A DNA stretch of 64,000 nucleotides, taken from NCBI RefSeq assembly GCF_045037415.1, contig NZ_CP173438.1, one strand, 5' to 3'. The notes below the pieces were generated by a model. The model was not told where the DNA came from. It did no database searches and was given only the letters and a program-made list of their open reading frames with translations. Below are positions 2,784-41,006 of the stretch, piece by piece. Position 1 is the first letter of the stretch. Each line of letters opens with the position of its first letter. Position numbers and translations under genes: made by a program. This DNA is from Escherichia coli (GTDB lineage Bacteria; Pseudomonadota; Gammaproteobacteria; Enterobacterales; Enterobacteriaceae).

Positions 2784-2871
2784 GGTGAGGTGTCCGAGTG
2801 GCTGAAGGAGCACGCCTGGAAAGTGTGTATACGGCAACGTATCGGGGGTTCGAATCCCCCCCTCACCGCCA
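2784..2871 (+). tRNA. serW: tRNA-Ser (anticodon GGA), class II tRNA with long variable arm, 88 nt, CCA encoded
   Basis: Acceptor stem GGTGAGG/CCTCACC, anticodon loop CTGGAAA (GGA), T-arm GGGGG-TTCGAAT-CCCCC, discriminator G plus CCA. Confidence 0.92.
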
Positions 2872-2943: not shown

Positions 2944-2982
2944 TGTCATTATTGGCAGACAGGATCCGCGGCAATTTCTAAG

Positions 2983-3003
2983 CTGCCTGTACGGCAGTGA
3001 ACT
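2983..3003. repeat. Direct repeat copy 2 (21 bp, ctgcctgtacggcagtgaact)
   Basis: Exact 21-bp match to copy 1. Confidence 0.7.
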
Positions 3004-38608: not shown

Positions 38609-40294
38609 GTGAATATAAACGTCGCCGAATTGTTAAATGGGAATTACATTCTGTTATTATTTGTGGTCCTCGCGCTTGGGCTATGTCTCGGGAAATTACG
38701 ACTTGGTTCGATCCAACTGGGTAATTCCATTGGCGTTTTAGTCGTATCGCTGTTATTAGGCCAACAACATTTCAGCATTAACACCGACGCGCTTAATCTT
38801 GGCTTTATGCTGTTTATTTTCTGCGTCGGGGTCGAAGCCGGACCGAACTTTTTTTCCATTTTTTTTCGCGATGGGAAAAATTACCTAATGTTAGCACTGG
38901 TGATGGTTGGCAGTGCGCTGGTGATCGCCTTAGGGTTAGGTAAGCTGTTTGGCTGGGATATTGGCCTGACGGCCGGTATGTTAGCTGGCTCTATGACGTC
39001 GACACCGGTTCTGGTCGGTGCTGGCGATACACTGCGTCATTCCGGCATGGAAAGCAGGCAGCTCTCACTGGCACTGGATAATCTGAGCCTCGGGTATGCC
39101 TTAACCTATTTAATCGGTCTGGTGAGTTTGATTGTTGGTGCGCGTTACTTGCCGAAATTGCAGCATCAGGACTTACAGACCAGCGCCCAGCAAATCGCCC
39201 GCGAACGTGGCCTGGACACTGATGCCAACCGTAAGGTTTATTTACCGGTGATCCGCGCCTACCGCGTCGGCCCGGAGCTGGTGGCCTGGACCGACGGCAA
39301 AAATCTGCGTGAACTGGGTATTTATCGACAAACTGGCTGCTACATTGAACGTATTCGACGTAACGGGATTCTGGCAAATCCAGACGGTGATGCGGTGCTA
39401 CAAATGGGCGATGAAATAGCGTTGGTAGGCTATCCCGACGCCCACGCCCGACTCGATCCCAGCTTCCGTAACGGCAAAGAAGTTTTCGATCGTGACCTTC
39501 TCGACATGCGTATCGTCACTGAAGAAGTGGTCGTTAAAAACCATAACGCCGTTGGCAAACGTCTCGCACAACTGAAGTTGACCGATCACGGTTGCTTCCT
39601 TAACCGCGTCATTCGTAGCCAGATTGAGATGCCGATAGATGACAACGTCGTGCTTAACAAAGGTGACGTTTTACAAGTCAGCGGCGATGCCCGTCGCGTA
39701 AAAACCATCGCCGATCGCATCGGCTTTATCTCGATTCATAGCCAGGTCACTGACTTGCTGGCATTCTGCGCCTTCTTTGTTATTGGGCTGATGATCGGGA
39801 TGATCACCTTCCAGTTCAGCACATTCAGTTTCGGCATGGGAAACGCTGCCGGGTTGTTATTCGCCGGAATTATGCTGGGATTTATGCGCGCTAACCACCC
39901 GACCTTCGGTTACATTCCGCAGGGTGCATTAAGCATGGTGAAAGAGTTCGGCTTAATGGTGTTTATGGCAGGCGTTGGTCTGAGCGCCGGTAGCGGTATT
40001 AATAACGGCCTGGGCGCGATTGGCGGTCAGATGTTGATTGCCGGATTGATTGTCAGTCTTGTGCCAGTGGTTATCTGTTTCTTGTTCGGTGCTTATGTAT
40101 TGCGAATGAACCGCGCACTGTTGTTCGGCGCAATGATGGGCGCACGCACCTGCGCGCCGGCAATGGAGATCATCAGTGATACAGCTCGCAGTAACATCCC
40201 GGCGCTGGGCTATGCGGGCACCTATGCAATCGCCAACGTCCTGCTGACGCTGGCAGGGACAATCATCGTCATGGTATGGCCAGGATTAGGATAA
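38609..40294 (+). CDS. ybjL: Putative transporter YbjL
   Basis: 561-aa ORF; two membrane domains flanking a soluble central region; length matches YbjL. Confidence 0.88.
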
Positions 40295-40336
40295 AACTGA
40301 AGTTGCCCTGAAAATGAAATTTTTTTTGCACAACCG

Positions 40337-40366
40337 CAGAACTTTTCCGCAGGGCATCAGTCTTAA
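40337..40366 (+). promoter_or_regulatory. Sigma-E (RpoE) promoter of rybB
   Basis: -35-like gaactt (40339-40344) and -10-like tctta (40361-40365), 16-nt spacer, about 6 nt upstream of the RybB 5' end. Confidence 0.55.
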
Positions 40367-40371
40367 TTAGT

Positions 40372-40450
40372 GCCACTGCTTTTCTTTGATGTCCCCATTT
40401 TGTGGAGCCCATCAACCCCGCCATTTCGGTTCAAGGTTGATGGGTTTTTT
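40372..40450 (+). ncRNA. rybB: Hfq-dependent, sigma-E-controlled small RNA RybB
   Basis: gccactgcttttctttgatgtccccattttgtggagcccatcaaccccgccatttcggttcaaggttgatgggtttttt matches RybB as recalled; 3' terminator stem ccatcaacc/ggttgatgg plus T-run; in the ybjL-rcdA intergenic region. Confidence 0.85.
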
Positions 40451-40469
40451 GTTGCCTGAAATTTATCTA

Positions 40470-41006
40470 CTACCCAGCAATCCTCTCAACCATCCTCAAA
40501 ATCTCCTCGCGTGATAGCGGCTTACGGTCGGTGACAAAATGCAGCGTCATTCCCTCAATAAACGCATCAAGCGCGCGGGCGGTTCCGGGTTCAAACCATT
40601 GTTCGAGCGTTTGTTGACTGCGCTGCATCCAGTTTTGCATTACCGTTTTTAAGAGCGGTTTTCGGCTAGCCAGCGCGTAGAGCTGGTACATCAGCTCCAT
40701 ATTATCCGGCGTTGCGACCTGTGAGCTGTAGATCATATCGGTGATAGCCTGGCATGCGCCTGGAGCATCACTAACATCGCTAAAAAATGCCTGATATTGC
40801 CGGGACATGATCTCAGTAAAACGGCTGAACGCCTCCAGCAACAACTCATCAATTCCTGAAAAATAGTAGGTCATCGATCCCAACGGCACCCCGGCAAGGG
40901 TAGCAATTTTGCGGTGTGTAACAGCATGTATTCCGTAAAGTTTCACCGCCTCCAGCGTGGCCTGGATAATTTTTTCTCGTCGTTGCGGATCGTTAGCGCG
41001 ACGCAT
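40470..41006 (-). CDS. rcdA: TetR-family transcriptional regulator RcdA (YbjK)
   Basis: ORF 40470..41036; N-terminus [21 protein letters not shown] (TetR HTH) at ATG 41006. Confidence 0.85.

Follow-up and report, generated by a model that had tools for sequence, protein, structure and literature searches.

The window, the whole 64,000-nt stretch of DNA analysed here, is a piece of Escherichia coli chromosome presented in reverse-complement orientation relative to MG1655. The interval under study lies between ybjL and rcdA, as the preliminary description of this sequence had proposed, and comprises a sigma-E-type promoter, the small RNA gene rybB with its terminator, and an unoccupied prophage attachment site that overlaps the end of the RNA (Table 1). 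The upstream neighbour, ybjL, is co-directional with rybB and ends 77 nt upstream of the RybB +1. The downstream neighbour, rcdA, is convergent, and 19 nt separate the RybB 3' end from its stop codon.

Table 1. Features of the ybjL-rybB-rcdA locus, with positions in the window.
Feature	Position	Strand	Description
ybjL	38609-40294	+	561 aa, aspartate:alanine antiporter family; NCBIfam NF003440, 1178 bits, full length; RefSeq name
A-tract then T-tract (AAAATGAAATTTTTTTT)	40311-40327	+	About -61 to -45 from the start site; putative UP element
Sigma-E -35 element AGAACTTTT (core GAACTT, 40339-40344)	40338-40346	+	8/9 consensus positions
Sigma-E -10 element GTCTTA	40360-40365	+	4/6 consensus positions
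RybB sRNA	40372-40450	+	79 nt, GCCACUGC...GGGUUUUUU; RF00110 match and identity to K-12 b4417
5' seed / target-recognition domain, nt 1-16, GCCACUGCUUUUCUUU	40372-40387	+	ompC/ompW complementarity; seed role, PMC6694218
Rho-independent terminator	40406-40450	+	12-bp outer helix (40406-40417 with 40435-40446), 3-bp inner helix, U-run 40445-40450
Unoccupied attB core of P2-like (Felsduovirus) prophages, ATGGGTTTTTTGTTGCCTGAAATTTA	40440-40465		26 bp; duplicated in ATCC 8739
Conserved flank past the U-run, GTTGCCTGAAATT	40451-40463	+	13 nt; 97 distinct flanks
rcdA (ybjK)	40470-41006	-	178 aa, TetR-family regulator; RefSeq annotation, TetR-family matches

A cmscan search of the whole window returned a match to the Rfam family RF00110 (RybB) at 40375-40453 (+), with 105.3 bits (E = 1.3e-20) against a gathering score of 40 and with all of the model covered (positions 1-79 of 79); the model begins 3 nt inside the RybB RNA. 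The preliminary description had made its assignment hinge on such a covariance-model match, and the match was obtained. The curated K-12 gene (b4417, NC_000913.3 887979..888057, 79 nt) aligns to window positions 40372-40450, and the alignment is base-for-base identical throughout the RNA and the core promoter. The identity of the RNA, its length of 79 nt, its strand and the interval 40337-40450 had thus all been given correctly. We consider it all but certain that the segment at 40372-40450 (+) is rybB, which encodes an envelope-stress sRNA of 79 nt that is Hfq-dependent and acts in trans, and that this explains the interval as a whole; none of our data speaks against it. Since 2006, RybB has served as a textbook example both of sRNAs that pair through a seed and of the sigma-E envelope stress response. 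The gene in the window is therefore an already known and well-studied E. coli sRNA gene, real but ordinary, and finding it carries little weight as a discovery.

The 271 nt around rybB are 100% identical in several sequenced strains. Of 5426 complete E. coli genomes, 5422 contain a match to this stretch and 5418 contain the promoter together with the RybB RNA, the latter pair with at least 99% identity in 5254 records. Between seven and eleven of the matches to this region are on E. coli records labelled as plasmids, which may be mislabelled chromosomal contigs or phage-plasmids with the att core. The gene is annotated as an ncRNA (b4417) in the curated K-12 record, and among the records listed, PGAP-annotated RefSeq E. 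coli genomes carry no feature over the promoter and rybB. The earlier remark that an ORF-only annotation misses rybB is therefore true in practice: in ORF-only or PGAP-based analyses, a highly conserved regulator and a prophage integration hotspot are read as empty spacer.

Orthologous loci were collected by scanning species-representative genomes with RybB nt 4-23 as the search pattern, which yielded 120 loci ranging from Escherichia to Yersinia, Serratia, Proteus, Providencia, Xenorhabdus and Sodalis. From these we used 116 RNA sequences, 24 diverse orthologues for covariation, 112 distinct upstream sequences drawn from about 115 Enterobacterales species, and 97 distinct downstream flanks. 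The invariance of nt 4-23 in this collection is an effect of ascertainment through the search pattern and is not independent evidence. Nucleotides 1-3 and 24-25, which lie outside the pattern, are invariant in all 116 sequences.

Folded as a single sequence, the whole 79-nt RNA reaches -25.2 kcal/mol (z = -3.48), and none of 200 shuffled sequences folds as well. The fold contains a long 3' hairpin (40406-40446) and then six U ending at 40450, the terminator hairpin and U-tail that characterize the RybB family. In the 24 diverse sequences, the outer helix carries compensatory changes at 7 of its 12 pairs, with 94.9% of cells paired; none of 500 shuffles reaches the observed covariation score, and slid-partner controls pair at 27-47%. 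RNAalifold recovered the same terminator helix. A simple terminator scan made no call at RybB, which reflects its loop limit (3-8 nt) and is not evidence that a terminator is absent. Since folding and covariation both support the helix, we regard the question of the terminator as settled; the hairpin and U-run noticed in the preliminary description are borne out by the fold, by the compensatory pairs and by the six U at 40445-40450. According to published work, which describes RybB as a seed joined to an Hfq-binding 3' scaffold (PMC6694218), the hairpin and U-tail would double as the Hfq-binding module. We also considered a 5' helix (nt 2-5 with nt 31-34) that would bury the seed, and rejected it: its A4:U34 pair is broken in 17 of the 24 sequences and the helix shows zero covariation. 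Because this helix is unsupported in the 24 orthologues, the RybB 5' end is best read as single-stranded.

The same comparative data bear on whether the region codes for a small protein. Two mechanically called open reading frames do exist here in the window, at 40386-40514 (+, 42 aa, TTG start) and at 40269-40424 (-, 51 aa). Across 114 orthologous loci, however, the plus-strand frame varies from 5 to 96 codons, with 5, 24 and 9 as its commonest lengths, and the start of the minus-strand frame is ATG in only 16 loci, with ACG, AAG or GAG in most others. The RNA itself varies in length from 76 to 84 nt through indels of 1-2 nt, and the hairpin changes by compensatory substitutions, not in a codon-like pattern. 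Both frames over rybB were rejected as coding, as their lengths or starts are not conserved in the orthologous loci. The small-protein reading is effectively refuted, and we give it practically no chance of being correct.

Upstream of the RNA, the core GAACTT is followed by a 16-nt spacer (40345-40360), by TCTTA (40361-40365) and, after a further 6 nt, by the +1 G at 40372. Both the spacing between the two elements and their distance to +1 are those of a sigma-E-type promoter, as expected for RybB; the published sigma-E consensus is GGAACTTTT at -35 and GTCAAA at -10 (PMC1804206). Among the 112 distinct upstream sequences, GAACTT is kept at -33 to -28 in 110 (about 1.9-2.0 bits per position) and GTCnnA at -12 to -7 in all 112, as GTCATA (50), GTCTTA (29) or GTCTGA (28), so that the -10 variant of the window is the second commonest among the orthologues. 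The T at -1 is invariant in this set, and the spacer between -35 and -10 varies freely and is nearly uninformative (about 0-0.8 bits). The promoter that had been read from the sequence as gaactt, a 16-nt spacer and tctta is accordingly present at 40339-40365 and conserved in orthologues. GAACTT-N15-GTCNNA occurs once in the 64-kb window against about 0.15 occurrences expected, and at least once in 14 of 100 shuffles; by itself, the pattern is only mildly unlikely. What gives the promoter its evidential weight is that it keeps a fixed position and is conserved across orthologues. No sigma-70-like promoter was found on the plus strand in 40000-40800.

Published experiments point in the same direction. 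In a Salmonella delta-rpoE strain, rybB promoter activity is near background, and the promoter motifs fit the sigma-E consensus (PMC1804206). In E. coli, expressing rpoE induces a rybB-lacZ fusion (PMC12249550), and rybB is listed among the strongly competing sigma-E promoters (PMC3326320). By analogy with this literature, which concerns the identical K-12 sequence and the Salmonella orthologue, rybB in the window is expected to be sigma-E-dependent.

The position of the promoter also decides against the view that the hairpin serves only to terminate ybjL and that RybB is a by-product of the ybjL 3'-UTR instead of an independent gene. The local arrangement invites such a view: in 90 of 109 species loci rybB is preceded by a ybjL homologue, the position typical of RybB, no other terminator-like site occurs between the ybjL stop (40294) and the hairpin, and ybjL transcripts probably also end at the RybB hairpin. 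A by-product would not, however, account for a promoter motif whose spacing to the RNA 5' end is constant in 110-112 of the 112 sequences, nor for the 19 loci (in Proteus, Providencia, Xenorhabdus and others) that lack an upstream ybjL and retain both promoter and RNA. Reporter fusions, moreover, show autonomous sigma-E-dependent promoter activity (PMC1804206, PMC12249550). We judge the by-product reading to be very improbable and treat rybB as a gene with its own promoter.

Farther upstream, the A-tract and T-tract of Table 1 fall in a region of raised conservation and A/T content: in the 112 distinct upstream sequences, positions -54 to -45 carry 0.5-1.45 bits, and the AT content of -62 to -39 averages 76%. 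Distal UP subsites are centred near -53 and have an A-tract running into a T-tract as their hallmark (PMC3326320). From its sequence and placement, the tract at 40311-40327 is likely to be an UP element, corresponding to the distal alpha-CTD subsite. The T-tract (40320-40327) has 8 T in the window and 7 T in K-12.

The seed stands at the very 5' end of the RNA, is unpaired and is identical to that of K-12, as expected of a RybB RNA. Its nt 1-8 (GCCACUGC) are perfectly complementary to GCAGUGGC at -48 to -41 of the K-12 ompC leader. The predicted pairing of the seed with ompC reaches -17.4 kcal/mol, an energy attained by none of 56 background leaders and by 10 of 1000 shuffled seeds. For nt 1-16 against ompW codons 2-7, the value is -15.5 kcal/mol, as low in 1 of 56 background leaders and in 22 of 1000 shuffled seeds. 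The background consisted of the 56 gene leaders of this window. Complementarity is what was computed here; the Hfq dependence of the RNA and the repression of omp mRNAs would follow from the literature (PMC6694218, PMC1804206).

The best match of the seed to a non-target in the window (-17.1 kcal/mol) lies upstream of the ORF at 61016-59037 (-), gsiA, and was rejected as a target. It consists of 9 bp, including one G-U pair. The true GsiA start lies 36 codons downstream of the mechanically chosen ATG, leaving the match about 130 nt ahead of it. Given this distance and the G-U pair, we treat the match as probably due to chance.

Taken together with the published model, the features of the locus suggest the following course of events. 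RNA polymerase carrying sigma-E would recognise AGAACTTTT at -35 and GTCTTA at -10, probably assisted by the upstream A/T tract acting as an UP element, and transcription would run from the G at 40372 to the intrinsic terminator at 40450. Hfq would bind the 3' hairpin and U-tail, leaving the unstructured seed GCCACUGCUUUUCUUU to pair with OMP mRNAs such as ompC and ompW, in the leader or early in the coding region. Such pairing would block translation and hasten mRNA decay, the load of unfolded porins would drop, and sigma-E activity would in turn be fed back downwards. Sigma-E-driven transcription, the role of Hfq, seed-mediated repression of OMP mRNAs and feedback on sigma-E are together the established model of RybB action (PMC1804206, PMC6694218, PMC12249550); for the window, the steps of mRNA decay and sigma-E feedback are taken over from that literature by analogy.

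The closest relatives of the gene are RybB of K-12 (b4417) and its Salmonella orthologue. The 79-nt RNA, the core promoter, the flanking genes and their orientation are the same as in the window (with identity in the case of K-12), and the sigma-E motifs, seed and terminator architecture are shared. Compared with K-12, the window has an extra T in the T-tract and a different allele at 40454-40463, both of which leave the RNA untouched. MicA and MicL resemble RybB in having a sigma-E promoter, in depending on Hfq and in repressing mRNAs of abundant envelope proteins (PMC1804206, PMC4102768, PMC6694218), but differ from it in sequence, locus, seeds and target sets; the window contains no Rfam match to MicA or MicL. 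In Vibrio cholerae, MicV and VrrA have the seed motif CRCUGCUUUU in common with RybB, which can functionally replace them (PMC6694218). These RNAs are absent from enterobacteria and are not homologous to RybB beyond the seed, so that the likeness is an analogy of mechanism and not membership of one family.

On the downstream side, the convergence with rcdA had been put forward as a reason for interest in the locus. The arrangement itself is real, with its 19-nt gap, but adjacency of the two genes proved to be restricted to certain lineages: only 16 of 106 species loci have an rcdA homologue in the 500 nt downstream of rybB. It could nevertheless be argued that rcdA transcription runs antisense through rybB and that convergence thereby couples a biofilm regulator to an envelope-stress RNA. 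The short distance between the RybB 3' end and the rcdA stop would favour such coupling, as would the minus strand, on which the hairpin is followed by CUCCACAAAAUGGGG and not by a U-run; rcdA would then lack a canonical terminator before rybB. Against this stand the same 16 of 106 loci and the prophage of about 35 kb that separates rybB from rcdA in about 12% of E. coli genomes, and our literature search found no report of transcriptional coupling between RybB and rcdA. We consider coupling through convergence quite unlikely. As adjacency is found in so few species loci, a conserved functional link between RybB and rcdA is likewise judged unlikely.

The prophage just mentioned uses the 3' end of rybB as its attachment site. 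The attB core of Table 1 spans the final 11 nt of RybB together with the 15 nt that follow. In strain ATCC 8739, this 26-bp core is duplicated, with 23 of 26 positions identical, at the two ends (attL and attR) of a P2-like prophage of about 35 kb that lies between rybB and rcdA. There, ogr and gpD adjoin RybB, the integrase adjoins rcdA, and rybB is restored intact at attL. ATCC 8739 thus displays both a duplicated core and an integrase at one end, as expected of an attachment site in use. In the window, rcdA follows RybB directly after the 19-nt gap, and the site is empty.

The match to the rybB region breaks just past the RybB terminator in about 670 of 5422 E. coli genomes (about 12%). In 9 species loci, belonging to Escherichia, Raoultella, Enterobacter, Lelliottia, Shimwellia and Serratia, a homologue of Ogr or gpD was found at 84-1125 nt beyond rybB. 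This near-side search told more than one with the ATCC 8739 integrase, which gave a single match in the species loci, most of them having little sequence on the integrase side. Searching a phage collection with RybB and its flank returned 5 records, all prophages with host DNA at their ends, and was of little use for attP. The use of the rybB 3' end as a prophage attachment site is already published: Felsduovirus prophages integrated in rybB have been described as hotspot #29 (PMC10121019), and a Klebsiella island is named Kpn38RybB (PMC4048246). In this respect, rybB resembles the tRNA and tmRNA genes that serve as attB, in which a gene for a small structured RNA offers its 3' end as the site and a copy carried by the phage restores the gene (PMC10121019; PMC4048246). 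It differs from them in that the target is a regulatory sRNA, and in the window the site is unoccupied.

Conservation continues beyond the U-run for a short distance. Among the 97 distinct flanks, T stands at +2 and +3, counted from the U-run, in 98-100%, and positions +4 to +7 (GCCT) are kept in 68-86%; the information falls to about 0 by +15, fading near the right edge of the att core (40465). That the flank should be conserved across Enterobacterales, regardless of the downstream gene, was unexpected. The window differs from K-12 in this flank at 40455, 40456, 40459 and 40463, and two main alleles of 40454-40463 are found in E. coli: the window type, GCCTGAAATT (at least 99% identity, 2172 records), and the K-12 type, ATCTAAAACT (90-95% identity, 2734 records). 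In lysogens, the window-type, phage-like allele is present on the attL side up to the junction. One tentative explanation, of which we are doubtful, is that P2-like phages, which carry this core themselves, keep the flank uniform, since each integration and excision could overwrite the host copy with that of the phage by a form of gene conversion; alternatively, the flank may belong to an extended terminator or to a longer RybB isoform.

Elsewhere in the window, a tRNA-Ser (GGA) gene occupies 2784-2871 (+), and some 100 nt away, at 2975-3002 (-), there is one perfect type I-F CRISPR repeat (Rfam CRISPR-DR4, 50.1 bits). No second copy of the repeat occurs in the window with up to 3 mismatches allowed, so that the repeat stands alone and forms no array. 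We take it to be, possibly, a CRISPR remnant near serW of the kind present in many E. coli strains.
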